In this document: positions 48,303-57,039 of the stretch, in pieces | Layout: each line of letters begins with the position of its first letter | Numbering within the stretch: position 1 is the stretch's first letter | Assembly (NCBI GenBank): GCA_034439575.1 | Contig: JAWXAQ010000007.1 | Location: 32,001-96,000, forward strand | From: Leptospira sp. | Lineage (GTDB): Bacteria > Spirochaetota > Leptospiria > Leptospirales > Leptospiraceae | Direction: 5' to 3' | Length of the DNA: 64,000 bases | Notes under the pieces: model-generated | What the model was told of the DNA's origin: nothing | Database searches by the model: none | Seen by the model: the letters and a program-made list of their open reading frames with translations, nothing else | Position numbers and translations under genes: made by a program

Positions 48303-49339
48303 TGAAAGCTGCTGTACTTCATTCAGGGGATCGTGAACTTAAAATTGAAAATGTAGCTATACCGACTCTCCTACCTAAGCATATAAAAGTTAAAGTCAAA
48401 GCTTGTGGTATTTGTGGTTCAGACATCCATCTAATCTTACATGGAAAAATGAAAGCTTCCTATGTACCTTGCATTCCTGGACATGAGACTTCAGGCATAG
48501 TATCCGAATTAGGCGAAGGAGTGACAAAATTTGTCGTCGGTGATAGGGTCGTAGTCAGTGCAGGAACTTCTTGTGGAAAATGCGTTCACTGTTTGGCGGG
48601 AAAAGAAAATTTATGTGATCAAATCGGTGTGCTTGGATTTAACCAACAAGGTGGCTTTGCAGAATATTTAGTTATTGAAGAACGATACTTACACAAATTA
48701 CCAGATTCTATTCCTTTTGAACAAGGTGCTATATTGGCGGATGCCGTTTCTACTCCTTACCATGCAATTAAATACCAAGGGGAATTGAAAGAAGGAGAAA
48801 CGGTTGTTATCATAGGATGTGGTGGCCTTGGAATTCATGCTGTCGCCATTTCTAAAGCCTTAGGTGCAGGTCATATAATCGCTGTGGATATTGACCGTGG
48901 TTCTCTCGACAATGCCTTATCATACGGTGCGAATGATGCGATTCTTCTCGAAAAAAATACCCAACTCGGAAAAGTCTTAAAAGAAAAAACCAAGGGAATT
49001 GATCTCATCGCTGACTTTTCCGGACATATGTCAAATATAGAAAGTAGCATTCGTGCCATGAACCGAGGGGGAAGGATCGTTTTGGTCGGTATCGGTCGGA
49101 GTAAATTAGAAATTCCTATGCCTTTTTTTCTTATAGAAAGGCAGATTCGCATAACAGGATCATATGGTTCAGATAAAAGGGCGATTCCTGAACTGATTGA
49201 TTTATATATTAATAAAAAAATTGATTTAACTAAGTCAATTAGCGGTGTTCACAAATTGGAAGATGCGAACGAATATTTACATGCTTTGGAAGAAAAACGG
49301 GGTAACCCGATCAGATTCATATTGAATCCAGAGCTCTAA
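48302..49339 (+). CDS. Zinc-dependent alcohol dehydrogenase (MDR)
   Basis: CGICGSD, GHE, structural Zn C..C..C.......C, GCGGLG. Confidence 0.94.
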   Translation: MKAAVLHSGDRELKIENVAIPTLLPKHIKVKVKACGICGSDIHLILHGKMKASYVPCIPGHETSGIVSELGEGVTKFVVGDRVVVSAGTSCGKCVHCLAGKENLCDQIGVLGFNQQGGFAEYLVIEERYLHKLPDSIPFEQGAILADAVSTPYHAIKYQGELKEGETVVIIGCGGLGIHAVAISKALGAGHIIAVDIDRGSLDNALSYGANDAILLEKNTQLGKVLKEKTKGIDLIADFSGHMSNIESSIRAMNRGGRIVLVGIGRSKLEIPMPFFLIERQIRITGSYGSDKRAIPELIDLYINKKIDLTKSISGVHKLEDANEYLHALEEKRGNPIRFILNPEL

Positions 49340-51255
49340 TCCAATATTTCAATTAATATATAAGAAACATCATCATCTTGGTGTTCCCAAGATCTGGAAT
49401 AATTTCTGAATTCCTTTTGTATCAATTCATGATACTTTTTGAATTCTTCTTCTTTATGTTCCCATAATAATTGACGAAGTCTTTCTTCACCAAAGGCGCC
49501 TAAGGTGGGATTATTCAAATCAGGAATTCCGTCAGTGAATAAAAACAATCTATCTCCCACTTCCAAACTCAATTTACCTACAGAATATTCTGAATCAGCA
49601 AAAATTCCTAGAGGTCGCCCTTTTGTTTTATATTCTAATAAATAGGGAGACGATTTCCTTATTAAGAAAAAAACAGGATGGCCTGCATTTACATAAGATA
49701 AAACTTTTGATTCCGTATCTATATAAAGATAAGATGCGGTAATAAACATACCCCGATTTTTGCCATATAAATTTCGATTCATGGAATTGAAAACTTTTGC
49801 CGGATACTGTATGTAAGGTGAGGTTGCAGTGAAGGCCATTTTTGACATCGCAGCCACTACGGCTGATGAAATACCATGACCGGCAACATCGCAAATCAAT
49901 ATCCCCCAATTTCCCATACTGTCGTTCACATAATCAAAATAATCGCCACCTATCGAATGCAAGGAGTGATTAAAACTAACAATATTTAAATTTTGATCTC
50001 CTTTTTCTAAATCAGATAATAGGGATTTTTGAAGTTCTTTTGCCAAAATTAAGTCTTTATCTATGGCAACCAATCTCTCTAATTCTTTGTTTTTCGAGAT
50101 TAGAATCTGATTGTACTGATCTAGAGATTTTATAATGTCTAAATAATATTTGAAAACATAATATGAAAACGCACTGACCCCAATCCAAAATCCGATATGA
50201 ATAATTGAAAATTTATAAGGTAGTATTTCCATATCAACAAGGCTATCATGTGAACCTGCAACAACTAACGAAAGTAATCCGAATGATATTAAATTTAATT
50301 TATATTGTTTTCTCCAAATAATATATAGAGCAGAAAATAAAACAAATGTAGCTTCAACAATAACCCACCAGATAAAATCCCATTCAGCACATAAAAACGA
50401 TGCTTCCTTATCGTAATGTTTTATAAAATAAAAAATATATAAAATTATATGTATGCCACTTAAAATGCGAAATACATTTTTAAAAAAAGGAGGAAATACT
50501 TCACCCAAAAATAACATAAGGAGAACGGGACAAATCGTATAATTTAAATATTGGATAGAAGCCATAAGATTGGAATTTGATTGGAAATAGTAACCGAGAA
50601 AACCGTTTGTTCCTTCAATCAAAGAACTACTTAACAATAATAATGCGAAGTATAAATTGATTTTTATCTCAGGTCGTAAAAAATATAGTCCTATAAAAAT
50701 AAAAGATAGGAAAAACAAAACGGGAGTCAGGCATAATCTAAGTAAATTTTGAGAAAGTAACTCCATCAATGCATCATGGTATTCTAATATCTTGATGGAA
50801 TGATCAAGGCCGATATATGCTTGGTATTTCCCTTTACACTTAACATATATATATCCACTGCCTTCTCTTTTTAAAGGAATCAGATGGGGAAAAACATAAT
50901 CTGTTTTTTCAAAGTCATATACGAGCTCGTTTCCATGAAAAACTTTGATTTTCTCCAAAGCGATTTCTATAAACAAAATAGGATTTCTAAAATGGGAAAG
51001 ACTGGAATCAGGAAAACGAATCCACAAATCATGACCCGAAATGGGTAACGTTCCAATCTGATCTGATGGAAAGCTACTCCAAGCAACTGGACTCAATTGA
51101 GCAGGGTCATTGATTTCTTTACTGGATTCTATCCATAAAAATTCTCTAAGATCGGAATAAACAGAATGTGCCTCGGTAATAGGAAAATTATTTTCACTCT
51201 GAAATAGACAATTTTGTAGGCCAAATATGATGGTAAAAGTGAAAATTCTTAGCAA
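49336..51255 (-). CDS. Membrane (7TM-DISM-like) SpoIIE/PP2C phosphatase
   Basis: Extracellular domain, about 7 TM helices, GGDYFD, CDVAGHG, NAGHP, FTDG, DDD. Start uncertain (TTG 51255 chosen; ATG 51339 possible). Confidence 0.88.
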   Translation of the reverse strand: MLRIFTFTIIFGLQNCLFQSENNFPITEAHSVYSDLREFLWIESSKEINDPAQLSPVAWSSFPSDQIGTLPISGHDLWIRFPDSSLSHFRNPILFIEIALEKIKVFHGNELVYDFEKTDYVFPHLIPLKREGSGYIYVKCKGKYQAYIGLDHSIKILEYHDALMELLSQNLLRLCLTPVLFFLSFIFIGLYFLRPEIKINLYFALLLLSSSLIEGTNGFLGYYFQSNSNLMASIQYLNYTICPVLLMLFLGEVFPPFFKNVFRILSGIHIILYIFYFIKHYDKEASFLCAEWDFIWWVIVEATFVLFSALYIIWRKQYKLNLISFGLLSLVVAGSHDSLVDMEILPYKFSIIHIGFWIGVSAFSYYVFKYYLDIIKSLDQYNQILISKNKELERLVAIDKDLILAKELQKSLLSDLEKGDQNLNIVSFNHSLHSIGGDYFDYVNDSMGNWGILICDVAGHGISSAVVAAMSKMAFTATSPYIQYPAKVFNSMNRNLYGKNRGMFITASYLYIDTESKVLSYVNAGHPVFFLIRKSSPYLLEYKTKGRPLGIFADSEYSVGKLSLEVGDRLFLFTDGIPDLNNPTLGAFGEERLRQLLWEHKEEEFKKYHELIQKEFRNYSRSWEHQDDDVSYILIEILD

Positions 51256-51337
51256 ATTGTTTCTGCAAAAGGCAATTGTATTAAGTTTGACTTCTAACAA
51301 ATTTTTAATCCATGATAGCAAAGCAGGATCAATGTAC

Positions 51338-51628
51338 ATGAACTCGTTTCGATTCCTAATCTTTTTTTCACTTACTTCACTTACCCTGTTTTTTTCGCTC
51401 AACGCACAAGAAAACCCTAGCCCGAAAGAACTCATCAGCCAAGACAAAATGGAATGTTATTCCATTCCGACTGAAATAGATAACTTAGACTACCAAAAGT
51501 CTGTTAAATGCATCACAAAAGATGCTATCTGTTATATTATCCAAGGATTTGCGATGAGTTGCATTCCCCGTTCAGGAAAATACCCTGCAGAGATTCCCGA
51601 CCTAACGCCGAAACCTGTTTATCCATAA
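51338..51628 (+). CDS. Small secreted four-Cys hypothetical protein
   Basis: AGGA upstream; signal peptide ..FFSLNA-QE; four Cys; stop 5 nt before the next gene. Confidence 0.65.
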   Translation: MNSFRFLIFFSLTSLTLFFSLNAQENPSPKELISQDKMECYSIPTEIDNLDYQKSVKCITKDAICYIIQGFAMSCIPRSGKYPAEIPDLTPKPVYP

Positions 51629-52653: not shown

Positions 52654-53940
52654 TTAGTTTCCTTTTAAATTTTTAATCATTTCATCAGTAGCCATATAAT
52701 CATTTGTTTTAAAAATCATATTTTCTTTTGTATCGACTATTAAAAAGAATGGCAATCCGATTTGTAATTCGGGATATCTCGGATCTAAAGAATATGATTC
52801 AAAAATTTTATCAGTATCATAAATTTTCCACAATATTGCATTCTCTTTTAAAGCCTCATTCAATTTAGAATCTGAAAGAGTCAATTTTTGAAATTCTTTG
52901 CAATTCGTACACCAATCTGCATAAAAATCAATAAACACTTTTTTGCCTTCAGCATTTGCCTTTTTAAAAACTTCGTCTTTGTTTCTATACCATACCAAGT
53001 TTCCCGAAATTTCATTTTCCAAGATTTTGGGATTGGACTCTAAACTGTTCACATAACTATACTTTGGTGCAATGACTAAAAAAAGTGCAATACTTAAAAG
53101 TATATTTGTGGCAATAAGTACAGCCTTTTTCATTCGTATGGTGATAAAATCTGAATTACTTTGGATATAAAACGATGCGATTACAATGAGTATCCAAAGG
53201 CCAAAGGCTTTAATGGTGGTTACATTGTCCCATCCCCAAACACCTGCTGCTTTTTGTAAGTAAGTATAGGAAAAAAATAAAATAAGCCCTGCGAGTACGA
53301 ATTGCACATAACGCATCCATTTACCCGACTTTGGCAATGATATCCCAAATACACCAATAGCAAGAAATGGTAAACCCACTCCTAGACCAAAGGCAAACAT
53401 CTTTAGTGCTGTGGCTAGAATTGAAAGAAAACCAATCGATCCATCTGATGAAGAGATAACTTGTAATAAAATAGAAACAACCACAGGGCCAACACATGGC
53501 GAGGATAATAATCCTGCACCCATGCCTAAAAGGAAACTTCCAAAGAAACTTGCAGAATTATGATTTGTTGACCTCTGTGTAAAAATAGGAAGATGTAAAA
53601 ATTCTGCAGATGACAAAGCTAATACAAACAATACATAGGCGAGAAATAAATTTGTTTCTGGATGGCGAAGAATTGAATTGAATATCCCTCCTGTAAAACC
53701 AGCAATGATCCCAAAGATCAAATACATGCTCGCTAATCCAAAATAATAAATAATTGGATGTAACCAACGAATTTTATCAGTTCTGGATTTTAAGATACCC
53801 GCTGTGATCGGATATAAGGGATATACACAAGGCAAAAGACTTGCCAGAAATCCACCTAATACGAGCAAAACGAACAAAAATGGTTGAAATCCATTTCCAA
53901 CTAACTGTGATTCAATATAAGATTGTAATTCAGAATACAT
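52654..53940 (-). CDS. DsbD/CcdA-type transmembrane disulfide reductase with C-terminal thioredoxin domain
   Basis: LLPCVYPLYP and SSPCVGP membrane Cys pair; LPKSG.WM; FIDFYADWCTNCK; no N-terminal Ig domain. Confidence 0.92.
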   Translation of the reverse strand: MYSELQSYIESQLVGNGFQPFLFVLLVLGGFLASLLPCVYPLYPITAGILKSRTDKIRWLHPIIYYFGLASMYLIFGIIAGFTGGIFNSILRHPETNLFLAYVLFVLALSSAEFLHLPIFTQRSTNHNSASFFGSFLLGMGAGLLSSPCVGPVVVSILLQVISSSDGSIGFLSILATALKMFAFGLGVGLPFLAIGVFGISLPKSGKWMRYVQFVLAGLILFFSYTYLQKAAGVWGWDNVTTIKAFGLWILIVIASFYIQSNSDFITIRMKKAVLIATNILLSIALFLVIAPKYSYVNSLESNPKILENEISGNLVWYRNKDEVFKKANAEGKKVFIDFYADWCTNCKEFQKLTLSDSKLNEALKENAILWKIYDTDKIFESYSLDPRYPELQIGLPFFLIVDTKENMIFKTNDYMATDEMIKNLKGN

Positions 53941-53944
53941 AAAA

Positions 53945-55348
53945 TTAGAAAATTAAATTTGCTTTAAGGAAAAAGGATCTTTCGAGTTTTCCATATTCTG
54001 AAATGAGGGGAGCCGAAGGAGTGGAAAATTGAGATCTATAGTCAGAAACTGTCCTTTCATTAGAAAGATTGTCAATATAATACTTATTTGGTGAGCCCTT
54101 CGAATCATACGACCTGGTTTCCATATAACCAAGACCTATACGAGTACTTTCTGAGAAAAAGTATTCCCAATAAACTTGTTTTGAGACATAATATGATTTA
54201 TCGGAGTAAACTGGATCTTTCACGCTATTTAGACTGGAAAGTCGCACCCAAGGCTCTTCTTGAGTCGTTTCTGTGGTCTTTAAGCCAGGATTTGGGCCTC
54301 CATTGGCAATTTCACCCCGAAACACCCAGCGAATAAGTTTAGTGCCCAAACCAAGCCAAGCATAAGCCCCGCGTCCTAATGTTTCATTTATAGGAATAGC
54401 AAATTGAGTTGGTGCCAAGGCATCTGTATATTCGCCACTGAATTTTTTTTTCACCATTCCACCTAGGCCTAAATTCACATATTGTTTCCAAATCACATTA
54501 CCTTCGACTGCATACGTTTGATCTTGTGATAAACGTATGTTTCCACGTAGTTGAGTGTTGGGATTGTTATCAGTGGGTAAACATTTTGTTTTTCCCTCAT
54601 AACATTCGTTACCCGCATAACCAAAGGCATTTCCACGTCTTCCGAGAAAGTGTAGTCCTGTTTTCAGTTCATCTGTCCATTTCTCTTCCCAACTGATTCT
54701 GGCAATGGCATCATACCCAGAATTTGAAGAATTTTGAAGACTTTTATAACCATCTCCATTAACAACCGCTATATGAGTTGATAAAGATTTCCATTGTGCT
54801 AAATAGGACAATCCTAAGTCCACTGGATCGGCTGAAAATGCTAGCGATTCCAAAGGTGATCTATCCATATAACGCCAATCATAATATCCACCCCAAACAG
54901 AGTGCATATGAGGCAGTTCTTGCATTCCGAAAATAAGTCTATGTTGGAAGGAACCTAATTCCCAAAGTTTTTGCACATTGGCACGGCGAATGGTAAATAT
55001 ATGAGGATTTGATTTTGATCCACCTTCTGCATTTGTGTCTGCAGATATGGAATTGCTTTTTACTATTTCACCCCAAAATTCTACTTTGATGCCCGTATTT
55101 TCCCATTCCTTGGAAATCATAAGCATTGTCCAGGGCATAGAAAATCCGGTTTTGTCAGATTGGCTGGTATCAGAAACGCCTGAGGCTTTATCGCGTACTC
55201 GATAACCAAACGTCGGTGTTAAGATAGCACCTACTTTTAATCCATAATAGCCATCTGGTTCATCTTTTTTTGTGGTGATAACCTCATCTGCAAATAACGC
55301 AAATGAGGTGAAGAGAGATGCAAATAAAAGTAAAAAAAATCTAATCAC
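53945..55348 (-). CDS. Putative outer-membrane beta-barrel (porin-like) protein
   Basis: Signal peptide ..FALFA-DE; amphipathic aromatic strands; IRRANVQ, NGDG; C-terminal FFLKANLIF ending in Phe. Confidence 0.72.
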   Translation of the reverse strand: MIRFFLLLFASLFTSFALFADEVITTKKDEPDGYYGLKVGAILTPTFGYRVRDKASGVSDTSQSDKTGFSMPWTMLMISKEWENTGIKVEFWGEIVKSNSISADTNAEGGSKSNPHIFTIRRANVQKLWELGSFQHRLIFGMQELPHMHSVWGGYYDWRYMDRSPLESLAFSADPVDLGLSYLAQWKSLSTHIAVVNGDGYKSLQNSSNSGYDAIARISWEEKWTDELKTGLHFLGRRGNAFGYAGNECYEGKTKCLPTDNNPNTQLRGNIRLSQDQTYAVEGNVIWKQYVNLGLGGMVKKKFSGEYTDALAPTQFAIPINETLGRGAYAWLGLGTKLIRWVFRGEIANGGPNPGLKTTETTQEEPWVRLSSLNSVKDPVYSDKSYYVSKQVYWEYFFSESTRIGLGYMETRSYDSKGSPNKYYIDNLSNERTVSDYRSQFSTPSAPLISEYGKLERSFFLKANLIF

Positions 55349-56046
55349 TATTTTCCATATTTTTCATCTGCTATACGATCTTTTGCTTCCCAACCAATTG
55401 GTTTGTGGCAAGAAAGACAACTAGATAGCATAGGAACAGTTTTCATTTTTTTCTGAAAATCAAGTGTAGCGCCGTCTTTGGTAATTAAACCCTTATATTC
55501 ATTTTTCTCAATATCAGACATACCTTCAGTAACGCCAGCACCGCTTCCTTTTTCAAAAACAGAACCATTCACATCTACTTTGCCTTCGCATACACAAGTG
55601 TAGGTTTTCTTTTCTTTTGCTATAAAGTAAACGCCAAATGCTGTTCCCCTAACGCCTGCTGTTGATGTTGGTGAAGATACTTCAAAGTTTCCTTTTTTGA
55701 AATCTTTGACTTTAAACCAAGCGGAACCATTTTCAACAAATGCTTTGGATACTTGTTTTTTTGTGTCCCATTCTTTTAAAGCAAAAGTTGTGTTTGGTTG
55801 GATGCGGAATTCTGTTTCTTTATAAATTAAGTCTACTTTGGATCCGTTTCCAGTCTTAAGAGTATCACCAGGTTTGATGACATCATTGACTTTGAAAGCT
55901 TTCCAAAGTTTGGAAGTATCACCCGCCGATAAAACTGTGACCTTTCCTTTTACAAAGCCTGCTATAGCATAGTCCTCAGCATTGAGACTTGTTAATCCAA
56001 TGCTGATTGCGAATATTAATTTAAATCCGATTAGTTGGTTCTTCAT
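55348..56046 (-). CDS. Secreted FecR-domain protein with C-terminal CxxCH motif
   Basis: Signal peptide; GD.LKTG..S, G.AWF.V, F.V.SP...AGVRGTAF, VCEGKV.V; CLSCH at 55405-55419. Confidence 0.88.
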   Translation of the reverse strand: MKNQLIGFKLIFAISIGLTSLNAEDYAIAGFVKGKVTVLSAGDTSKLWKAFKVNDVIKPGDTLKTGNGSKVDLIYKETEFRIQPNTTFALKEWDTKKQVSKAFVENGSAWFKVKDFKKGNFEVSSPTSTAGVRGTAFGVYFIAKEKKTYTCVCEGKVDVNGSVFEKGSGAGVTEGMSDIEKNEYKGLITKDGATLDFQKKMKTVPMLSSCLSCHKPIGWEAKDRIADEKYGK

Positions 56047-56112
56047 GAAGTGTTATCCTACAAAGAACTTAACAAACTTATCAAGAAATTTTTTCATCTG
56101 CATTTTGCTATA

Positions 56113-57039
56113 TTATGTCCAAGGGATCGGGAAACCGAGATGTACCAGTTTTGACTCCAATTCATCACGTTCTCGACTCTTTTTACTCGTACTACCATTT
56201 TCATCCAGTAGTCCAAATTCTTTTGCGGCGGCGATGGCACCTGACTTGCCTGATTGATTGTATGCAGAAATTATTTTTTTGTCATACTGTGTGAGAAAAA
56301 GAGATTGAACTCTGTAATCCAAAAAAGCTTCCCAAGCATAAGGAACCCATTTACTTACAATTTCATCTCCGATAACTGTAGCAAATTTTCGTATCTCTAA
56401 TTGCGCATGATCATCCATTCGAAGTGCGAGAAAATGAAATAAGTTATGAAGGTCAACTTTCCAATAAGCTTCAGTGTATGTTGCTAATGGTAAATCTTTC
56501 CTTGCTTGTTCTCTCGCAACACCGAGATCCAAACGTTCTTGGTACAAAGAATTAGCTAACGCTTGTAATTCGGTTTCTTTTTTTGTAAGCAGAGTTCCTG
56601 TTTCTAAATTTAAAAATCCATCACTACCTTGTTTATTTCCAACTGATTGAACTCTCCACTCTGATGGCTTTGTCGTTTGTGCAGAATCAATTGCTACAGA
56701 ATACCTTGTAGAGTATTCATTGACATTTGCAGTCCTATGTCGTATCCACTGACGCCATGTATCCATGGGAACTCTTACATGAAATTTGATTTCACACATC
56801 TCGAAGGGAGTGCTATGTCGATGACGCATCAAGTAACGAACCAAACCTCGATCTTCATTTACTTTTTTTGTTCCTTTTCCGTACGAAACGCGCGCGGCTT
56901 GAACAATCGATTCATCTGAACCCATGTAATCAACAAGTCTGACAAAACCATCGTCCAATACAGGAAAGGCTTTTCCCAGGATAGAATCTAGGGAAGGTAC
57001 GGAAGCTCGAGAAATAGGTTCAAAATCAGTTTGTTGCAT
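56113..57039 (-). CDS. thyX: FAD-dependent thymidylate synthase
   Basis: AARVSY, H.TPFE, RQWIRHRTANVNEYSTRY, REQAR..LP, HAQ.EIR. Confidence 0.96.
   Translation of the reverse strand: MQQTDFEPISRASVPSLDSILGKAFPVLDDGFVRLVDYMGSDESIVQAARVSYGKGTKKVNEDRGLVRYLMRHRHSTPFEMCEIKFHVRVPMDTWRQWIRHRTANVNEYSTRYSVAIDSAQTTKPSEWRVQSVGNKQGSDGFLNLETGTLLTKKETELQALANSLYQERLDLGVAREQARKDLPLATYTEAYWKVDLHNLFHFLALRMDDHAQLEIRKFATVIGDEIVSKWVPYAWEAFLDYRVQSLFLTQYDKKIISAYNQSGKSGAIAAAKEFGLLDENGSTSKKSRERDELESKLVHLGFPIPWT

Follow-up and report, generated by a model that had tools for sequence, protein, structure and literature searches.

Introduction

To our knowledge, FecR-fold domains have been known as cofactor-free periplasmic signal relays. 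In the FecR/PupR anti-sigma factors (structures 6ovk and 4m0n) the periplasmic FecR module has an outer-membrane barrel as its partner. Here we describe a FecR-fold protein with a haem-type motif that is encoded next to an outer-membrane barrel in Leptospira sp., in a stretch of 64,000 nucleotides (assembly GCA_034439575.1, contig JAWXAQ010000007.1, positions 32,001 to 96,000), which is referred to throughout as the window. The genes in question lie at positions 52654 to 56046 of the window and encode a 232-amino acid (aa) FecR-fold protein, named fecRcyt here, a 467-aa barrel, mid467, and a third protein, DsbD. fecRcyt shares the beta-sandwich fold, the Pfam family and the barrel partner of the FecR/PupR anti-sigma factors, but it has no cytoplasmic anti-sigma domain, no membrane helix and no nearby extracytoplasmic function (ECF) sigma factor or TonB-dependent transducer; its barrel is a porin-like 16-stranded one without plug or signalling domain; and it bears an invariant CxC and an invariant CxxCH. 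Loci of relatives, taken from a public genome collection, are labelled L followed by a number and genomes G followed by a number, with G000 being the genome of the window; genera and families carry g and f numbers.

MtrAB and Cyc2 are systems of the porin-cytochrome type. As portrayed in the available part of PMC4245776, porin-cytochrome modules (Pcc) likewise pair a barrel gene with a gene for a periplasmic CxxCH protein. Systems of this type use multihaem chains or a fused cytochrome-porin, whereas here a single CxxCH is present on a FecR sandwich in a signalling context, with no extracellular cytochrome and no further CxxCH gene in the locus. The haem c Cache domains (DUF3365/Tll0287, GSU0582/GSU0935) also combine an extracytoplasmic sensor fold with one strictly conserved CxxCH, and in the accessible text of PMC12889525 they are often stand-alone proteins that are linked with kinases, methyl-accepting chemotaxis proteins (MCPs) and cyclases. 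However, the fold of fecRcyt is a FecR sandwich and not a Cache domain, its CxxCH is a C-terminal appendage and not an insertion, and haem in fecRcyt is predicted only. The LysM-FecR/CHASE2 kinase operon of Burkholderia (PMC5192318) finds a parallel in three of three proteobacterial loci, where a CxC/CxxCH FecR gene is directly upstream of a gene for a CHASE2-guanylate cyclase; the Burkholderia proteins contain LysM, no CxxCH is described for them in the portion of that source available here, and the partner of the Leptospira fecRcyt is a barrel rather than a CHASE2 protein.

Results

An exported FecR-fold protein carrying CxC and CxxCH motifs

fecRcyt is encoded at 55348..56046 on the minus strand and is predicted to be an exported soluble protein. 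Residues 61-157 match the FecR family PF04773 with an E value of 1.6e-12 (Pfam; 48.2 bits against a cut-off of 24). An AF2 model built from a 26-row alignment has a pLDDT of 85.3, with 79-85 over the CxxCH block, and when searched with Foldseek it matched 4m0n/4m0h, the putative anti-sigma factor BDI_1681 (E 3.6e-8 to 2.6e-7), and 6ovk, the C-terminal signalling domain of PupR (E 1.7e-5). A search of the ESM Atlas returned FecR clusters only, and Pfam gave no match to SCO1 or PCuAC at E <= 0.1. Weak NCBIfam matches to Lsa33, Lsa19 and LipL45 (E 2.8e-15 to 3.3e-9) fell far below the cut-offs of these models; six further FecR paralogues are encoded in the genome. At the N-terminus, inspection by eye and without a predictor reveals a hydrophobic signal-like segment that ends LNA/ED and has no lipobox Cys, and this is read as a predicted Sec-type signal peptide of the ordinary kind, with no lipid anchor. 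Nothing but this segment precedes the FecR domain, so that the protein has neither an N-terminal cytoplasmic anti-sigma domain, an absence noted in a preliminary description of the locus, nor a membrane helix.

The same description had drawn attention to two cysteine motifs, and both can be seen in the translation. The CVC motif (55588..55596, minus strand; residues 151-153, with C151 and C153) is in the predicted beta-strand 147-154, and since both Cys belong to this one strand their side chains should lie on one face. The CLSCH motif (55405..55419, minus strand; residues 210-214, with C210, C213 and H214) is at the end of the predicted helix 205-212, 18 residues before the C-terminus; positions 55405-55434 of the minus strand translate as PMLSSCLSCH.

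We next addressed how far the two motifs are conserved. Among 26 homologues CxC was present in all and CxxCH in 24, the two without it being the weakest and truncated matches. In an alignment of 22 sequences, which spans the Leptospiraceae including L. interrogans, a Leptonemataceae metagenome-assembled genome (MAG), a Rhodanobacteraceae MAG and a deltaproteobacterial MAG, C151, C153, C210, C213 and H214 are invariant (22/22). A profile search of 1.84 billion protein cluster representatives gave 46,851 matches at E <= 0.001, of which the best 150 were examined; 77 of these were of 300 aa or less and 73 were longer. CxxCH was found in none of the 73 longer FecR proteins, whereas 53 of the 77 short representatives had both motifs, one had CxxCH only, nine had CxC only and 14 (several fragments among them) had neither. 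The full-length members of 190-300 aa with both motifs, including the window protein, were realigned. In this 51-member alignment the columns G107, W110, T135, F137, C151, C153, G155, C210, C213 and H214 are invariant (51/51), no other His or Met column reaches 50%, and 44 members have exactly four Cys in the mature part. It can be seen that H214 is conserved as strongly as the Cys, while the two residues between the Cys of CxxCH vary freely. The motif, His included, is therefore retained in orthologues. In the window's genome CxxCH occurs in 20 of 2601 open reading frames (ORFs) of at least 200 aa, and the expectation from composition is 2.3e-4 per 232-aa protein; judged by these counts and by its invariance in relatives the CxxCH of fecRcyt is neither chance nor lineage noise.

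The family reaches beyond Leptospira, into proteobacterial MAGs. Sampling outside the Leptospirales detected it in a single genome, G006, out of 300 of that genome's class and in two out of 251 of its order, both of them already known, and within the genomes searched its distribution outside the Leptospirales is sporadic.

Two further observations concern relatives of the family. Tandem fecRcyt duplicates are present in Leptonemataceae and in one Leptospiraceae genus (L041, L118, L027, L024 and L028; G708/G709/G710), and both copies in L041 keep CxC and CxxCH. There is also a sister class of exported FecR proteins of approximately 230-250 aa (loci L050, L060, L070; cluster representatives P0166, P0186, P0219, P0261, P0263, P0264, P0268 and P0272), where the strand motif is mostly CHC and a motif of HxHS type (HDHS, HNHS, HAHS) replaces CxxCH; from its motifs this class looks like a metal-binding variant. 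The sister-class gene of L. ilyithenensis (L050) follows genes for a hybrid histidine kinase and an EAL response regulator and precedes Nramp-like and Na+/H+ antiporter genes.

The FecR-fold protein and a porin-like barrel form a conserved gene pair

mid467 is encoded at 53945..55348 on the minus strand with a GTG start. The fecRcyt and mid467 genes overlap by one nucleotide, the G of the fecRcyt stop codon TAG being the G of the GTG start, and mid467 is separated from the third gene (52654..53940, minus strand) by four nucleotides (TAA-tttt-ATG). These junctions were read directly from the letters, and confirm the three co-oriented genes that the preliminary description reported.

No Pfam or NCBIfam family matched mid467 at E <= 0.1. 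Its AF2 model (pLDDT 78.1) has approximately 16 long strands and gave 240 PDB matches at E <= 0.001 with Foldseek, led by VhChiP, AlgE and PorB; the best matches (VhChiP, AlgE, PorB, OmpT and OprO/P) have E values from 1.9e-11 to 1e-7 with a modest TMq of 0.41-0.47. The protein has a signal-like N-terminus, and 28 homologues all keep C249, C256 and the C-terminal F467. We conclude that mid467 is a predicted outer-membrane porin-like barrel outside any named Pfam or NCBIfam porin family, and the model thus supports the earlier description of the middle gene as porin-like. In one genome of genus g12 the mid467 orthologue beside fecRcyt (G620:C36:26175-27622) is itself split by an internal TAA, which may mean a pseudogene or a sequencing error.

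To determine how regularly the two genes occur together, a census of 156 Leptospirales genomes was taken, with a fecRcyt threshold of E <= 1e-25 and adjacency scored by hand comparison of coordinate tables. fecRcyt was present in 134 and mid467 in 107 of the 156 genomes, and the two genes adjoin in 93 of the 107 genomes with mid467, in two gene orders. fecRcyt precedes mid467 in genus g1 (41/41), and the order is reversed in g12 (22/22), g13 (24/24), g4 (5/5) and g11 (1/1); adjacency of the pair has therefore outlasted a swap of gene order. Within the Leptospiraceae (113 other genomes) fecRcyt is found in 108 and mid467 in 105. In the window's clade (L008-L023) mid467 comes after fecRcyt at every one of the 16 loci, and thyX is upstream of the pair in 14 of them, L010 having no thyX there and L022 beginning at a contig end. 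Seven further loci (L033 and L035-L040, L. haakeii and L. sarikeiensis among them) have mid467 followed by fecRcyt with no dsbD within 7 kb, and in ten Leptospiraceae loci (L024-L032 and L034) fecRcyt is found alone or in tandem. L. interrogans holds the pair (L103, 40% identity), with CTCEG and NCLSCH retained; its products are annotated as 'conserved hypothetical protein' (AAS69834) and 'FecR family protein' (AAS69833), and a further accession, AAN49996, was also retrieved. The proposal that the FecR protein and the barrel belong together is thus borne out by the pair.

Other barrels and signalling genes adjoin fecRcyt in relatives

Where mid467 is not next to it, fecRcyt often adjoins barrels of other families. 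An Alginate_exp barrel (PF13372) is found on the same strand in L116 (4-nt gap) and L119 (37-nt gap), 1.3 kb away and convergent in L120, and upstream in L124 (the same locus as L034); a Porin_6 barrel is convergent with a 46-nt gap in L114. Barrels of three families therefore adjoin fecRcyt in different lineages, and the two that were compared, mid467 and the Alginate_exp barrel of L034, have no detectable homology (hhalign probability 0.7%). hhalign likewise found no relation between mid467 and a 453-aa ORF upstream of fecRcyt in L121. We take the presence of three barrel families beside one periplasmic protein as the best evidence that fecRcyt and an outer-membrane pore act together.

A second group of neighbours consists of signalling genes. 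A CHASE2-guanylate cyclase is encoded directly downstream in the three proteobacterial MAG loci (L046, L052 and L081), a LytS-type histidine kinase, mostly with a LytTR regulator, is encoded at L037, L041, L111, L112 and L118, and a chemoreceptor (MCP) two genes downstream at L123. These neighbours make sensing a more likely function than bulk electron transfer. The genome of the window has two CHASE2-cyclases of the same architecture, neither of them beside a FecR gene; one (L107:203-1444, plus strand) is preceded by an overlapping 414-aa Peptidase_M48 gene. Genes for redox and copper proteins are also seen, with PCuAC and SCO1 at L115 and L118, SCO1 alone at L041, and OsmC, a thiol peroxidase, directly downstream at L027, L031, L122 and L125. 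A TonB-dependent receptor is a few genes from fecRcyt in L027, L035 and L122 only. In a Leptospiraceae MAG (L026:4831-5562, minus strand) a 243-aa ORF with a Pfam ATLF match (anthrax lethal factor N/C domain, E 3e-7), probably a metalloprotease-like domain, is found beside laminin-G-like ORFs.

The adjacent dsbD is the only one in the genome

The third gene encodes a 428-aa ORF with a membrane beta domain and a C-terminal thioredoxin gamma domain. It matches DsbD_TM (PF02683, E 1.3e-25) and Thioredoxin_7 (PF13899, E 4.3e-12) in Pfam, and the motifs LLPCVYP, SSPCVGP and WCTNC are visible in its translation; a DsbD_TM domain with Cys-bearing membrane segments and a C-terminal CxxC thioredoxin domain are what it has in common with DsbD and CcdA-thioredoxin transporters. 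The NCBIfam model PRK00293 was matched over positions 171-549 of 574, with 176.6 bits against a cut-off of 330. Because the match begins at model position 171, the protein is a DsbD without the N-terminal alpha domain, which sets it apart from three-domain DsbD, as do its score below the NCBIfam cut-off and its single genomic copy.

The genome is 99.98% complete and has exactly one match to PF02683, the dsbD of the window. It also encodes cytochrome c maturation (Ccm) system I, with CcmF/NrfE-like and CcmE on contig 33 and CcmA and CcmC on contig 27, and a family search found ResB to be absent from it. DsbD is essential for Ccm system I in E. coli, according to the available part of PMC3601427. 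As the sole DsbD_TM protein in a genome with Ccm system I, this DsbD is the general periplasmic source of reductant. CxxCH proteins are encoded elsewhere in the genome too (G000 contigs C2, C8, C15, C33 and C36), among them four ORFs of 290-400 aa and one of 233 aa, with two motifs each; our guess, by size and motif spacing alone, is that these are di-haem peroxidase/MauG-like and cbb3-type proteins. At the level of prediction, the set of CxxCH proteins shows that c-type cytochromes are made in this organism.

The order fecRcyt-mid467-dsbD is found in 15 of the 16 loci of the window's genus. The exception is L010: in its genome thyX is flanked directly by dsbD and a hydrolase gene (L092), and the pair is found at a separate locus (L101). 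The DsbD orthologues of L. interrogans (51% identity) and L. haakeii (47% identity) are encoded on a different contig from the pair, and among the loci compared no dsbD is within 7 kb of the locus outside the window's genus. The fecRcyt/mid467 cassette is placed between thyX and dsbD only in this genus, and the three-gene run is a lineage-specific juxtaposition. Three-gene synteny, which the preliminary description had named as a check on the module, is thus conserved as far as the pair is concerned and confined to the window's genus where dsbD is concerned. The 4-nt gap makes it likely that dsbD is co-transcribed with the pair in this genus, but it does not define a three-part machine; co-transcription with dsbD would be sensible for a protein that depends on its Cys.

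Expression and surroundings of the locus

Contigs from RNA libraries of wastewater communities, with at least 95% likeness, cover fecRcyt and bridge the fecRcyt/mid467 junction (X2, 55038-55461; X3, 55250-56050); contigs of this kind cannot prove a single transcript, and such libraries may contain DNA. The mid467/dsbD junction has no contig cover, which is uninformative either way. Upstream of fecRcyt, thyX (57039..56113) is encoded on the same strand, and the 66-nt spacer between the two contains a tentative promoter-like TTGATA-18-TAGGAT (56055..56084, minus strand; 9/12 matches). In a scan for promoters and terminators there was no excess in the region, with 13 promoter-like sites against 15.2 in shuffles. 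X3 and another contig, X1, come from two studies and both end at 56050, which is 5 nt past the -10-like hexamer and 4 nt before the ATG, X1 with an adapter-like loose end. No Shine-Dalgarno-like sequence precedes the fecRcyt ATG. As a weak hint, the fecRcyt mRNA may be nearly leaderless.

The immediate neighbours of the three-gene run are thyX and genes for an alpha/beta hydrolase, a nitronate monooxygenase and a PP2C/SpoIIE phosphatase. No ECF sigma factor and no TonB-dependent receptor was found among the six gene products scanned around the locus, so that their absence next to it, noted earlier, holds within the window. The region has a G+C content of approximately 35%, and the close relatives are all Leptospira. 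Large, membrane-bound PP2C/SpoIIE phosphatases recur near the locus (window 49336-51447, minus strand; L010:2638-5373, of the 7TMR-DISM type); these are typical leptospiral signalling genes, and we draw no link between them and fecRcyt.

Discussion

The probable cofactor of fecRcyt

The conserved motifs suggest that fecRcyt may carry a cofactor, and a haem c is the one to which we give somewhat better than even chances. An invariant His, with free variation at the two positions that separate the Cys, is typical of haem c sites, and export of the protein is predicted to be of the Sec type in an organism that has Ccm system I. In class I cytochromes the CxxCH ends a helix, as it does in the fecRcyt model. 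A sensor fold that has acquired CxxCH is found in the Cache family, which includes stand-alone members and has a Cys/His-ligated haem c in Tll0287 (PMC12889525, available text). Since no His or Met besides H214 is conserved, C151 and C153 are the only candidates for a sixth ligand or a thiol switch. As to the other options, a metal or thiol site has a substantial though smaller chance, and disulfides alone are improbable. A further reading, an Fe-S cluster, was set aside because the signals of most members are of the Sec rather than the twin-arginine type; at L041, which has two copies, the N-terminus of one is TRRRF-like.

Several results weigh against haem c, and against a cofactor protein working with mid467. 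Searches of Pfam, NCBIfam and the tail of fecRcyt found no cytochrome c family above noise, the tail matches being sub-threshold and at the level of the motif only (Paired_CXXCH_1, E 0.06-0.07; MtrC/F, 0.16; ExtKL, 0.089). Just 5-25 residues follow CxxCH in the 51 members, which leaves little chain to enclose a haem. In the paralogous class, to which eight of the nine short representatives with CxC only belong as well as L050, L060 and L070, the CxC takes the form CHC and CxxCH gives way to an HxHS-type motif, a pattern resembling a metal site that exists in Cys2His2 and Cys4 versions; weak cupin-like matches run over the CxC strand, and the copper chaperones PCuAC and SCO1 flank fecRcyt in L115, L118 and L041. 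As regards the barrel, 14 of the 107 genomes have the two genes apart (genus g14, 0/8, together with G615, G608, G599, G600, G614 and G597), family f2 has fecRcyt in 25 of 42 genomes but mid467 in one of 42, and since genomes of one genus are kin, 93 of 107 amounts to far fewer independent events.

Alternative explanations

Much of this evidence would fit a protein in which a metal ion, most likely Cu(I) but perhaps Zn, is bound by the four Cys, whether or not H214 takes part, or in which these Cys act as a thiol/disulfide switch; fecRcyt would then be a periplasmic copper or thiol-redox sensor or chaperone that is fed via the pore and whose Cys are kept reduced by DsbD. In the model, CxC on one strand face and CxxC in a helix have a geometry that could suit a tetrahedral site, 44 of 51 members have exactly four Cys, and the CHC/HxHS paralogues, together with cupin matches that fall where cupins carry their HxH metal ligands, point the same way, as does the presence of PCuAC, SCO1 and the OsmC thiol peroxidase beside fecRcyt. 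The copper chaperone Cox11 has a CFCF motif on a beta-sandwich. However, a Cys4 site leaves unexplained why a His follows the fourth Cys in 51 of 51 members, and PCuAC/SCO1 surroundings, seen at three loci of two genera only, are equally typical of respiratory cytochrome loci. It is also established that a Sec-exported CxxCH protein, where Ccm system I is present, is an expected substrate for haem attachment (PMC3601427, in the part available). We regard the copper or thiol protein as possible but doubtful. The preliminary description had gone in another direction, towards a module of three dedicated parts, with DsbD supplying reductant to the FecR protein alone and the whole possibly serving as an outer-membrane electron conduit. 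The overlap and the 4-nt gap, which imply co-transcription in the window's genome, and the gene order held in 15 of 16 loci of the genus are in its favour, and the pairing of a barrel with a CxxCH protein resembles porin-cytochrome clusters, as far as the available part of PMC4245776 describes them. Against it, DsbD is encoded by the sole DsbD_TM gene and is needed by Ccm system I; the genome of L092 and L101 has thyX and dsbD adjacent with the pair elsewhere; in L. interrogans and L. haakeii dsbD and the pair are on different contigs, and no locus outside the genus has dsbD within 7 kb. One haem cannot span a membrane, and the neighbours elsewhere are signalling genes, so that a porin-cytochrome role in electron transfer also has little to support it. 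The model of a dedicated DsbD is largely refuted, and we consider the three-part module improbable.

Least probable of all, in our view, is that fecRcyt is an ordinary FecR member of the LipL45/Lsa33 kind, an envelope or surface adhesin whose Cys would form structural disulfides stapling the C-terminal helix to the sandwich, with a barrel next to it that has no mechanistic meaning. Such a protein would sit well with the weak Lsa33, Lsa19 and LipL45 matches, the six FecR paralogues in the genome, and the report of L. interrogans FecR-domain proteins as host-binding outer-membrane proteins (PMC13719327, accessible portion). However, the family is not limited to Leptospira, fecRcyt has no lipobox, three barrel families and several signalling genes recur as its neighbours, and here too the invariant His would have no explanation.

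A model for the fecRcyt/mid467 pair

We therefore return to a periplasmic, cofactor-bearing FecR-fold sensor or handler that works with an outer-membrane pore, its cofactor most likely a covalent haem c with Cys/His ligation, and we judge the case for this whole reading to be evenly balanced. fecRcyt would be exported by Sec and be soluble in the periplasm, where its beta-sandwich would carry a cofactor or redox site formed by the CxC on the strand face and the C-terminal helix ending in CxxCH. A single covalent haem c would be matured by Ccm system I, with reducing power for its attachment coming from the adjacent, and only, DsbD, and C151 or C153 would serve as the sixth haem ligand or as a thiol switch. 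fecRcyt and the 16-stranded mid467 pore would then make up an envelope module of two parts, for sensing or handling some small redox-active species (a gas, a peroxide or a metal) that enters by the pore, and in relatives the same protein would be wired to inner-membrane CHASE2 cyclases, LytS-type kinases and a chemoreceptor. DsbD itself is a housekeeping supplier of reductant whose gene, in this genus, is an incidental neighbour and is probably transcribed together with the pair. The arrangement of the genes, the modelled folds, the invariant motifs, the synteny of the pair, the single DsbD and the presence of Ccm are what the analysis shows; that a haem is attached, that fecRcyt touches the barrel, what signal is sensed and which partner acts downstream are inferred. 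The pair is probably an undescribed envelope redox or metal sensor. In its boldest form, which we put forward only tentatively and hold to be rather unlikely in all its parts, the model describes a new class of sensor: a FecR sandwich with an acquired CxxCH, a Cys/His haem c and a CxC switch would be docked to a pore, for which three barrel families would have been recruited by lineage, and would pass a signal (redox, gas or metal) on to inner-membrane CHASE2 cyclases or LytS-type kinases, as a core envelope component of the Leptospiraceae, pathogens included.

In the full-text literature searched, a scope that leaves out subscription-only papers, we found neither the fecRcyt/mid467 pair nor any FecR-fold protein bearing a haem motif described, and no paper in the literature searched was found for the L. 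interrogans accessions or UniProt identifiers of the pair. The FecR-domain proteins of L. interrogans that have been studied as host-binding proteins are other paralogues, by the available text of PMC13719327. The preliminary description is thus partly supported, being right on the conserved motif and the barrel partner and wrong on a dedicated supply of reductant; the tempting view of DsbD as a private reductant source is corrected, since the gene is the only one with DsbD_TM, Ccm system I is present and the adjacency is limited to one genus.

If a family with an invariant haem-type motif is what the alignments reflect, it would be a cofactor-bearing branch of FecR proteins, parallel to the recently described haem-Cache sensors. 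The recruitment of three apparently unrelated barrel families beside the same periplasmic protein offers a clear-cut and testable example of a partner being replaced by non-homologous ones. Almost all Leptospiraceae have the pair, L. interrogans included, where its annotation is no more than 'FecR family protein' and 'hypothetical protein', and it points to an unstudied role in the envelope of a genus that relies on redox and metal sensing to survive in the environment and to adapt to its hosts.

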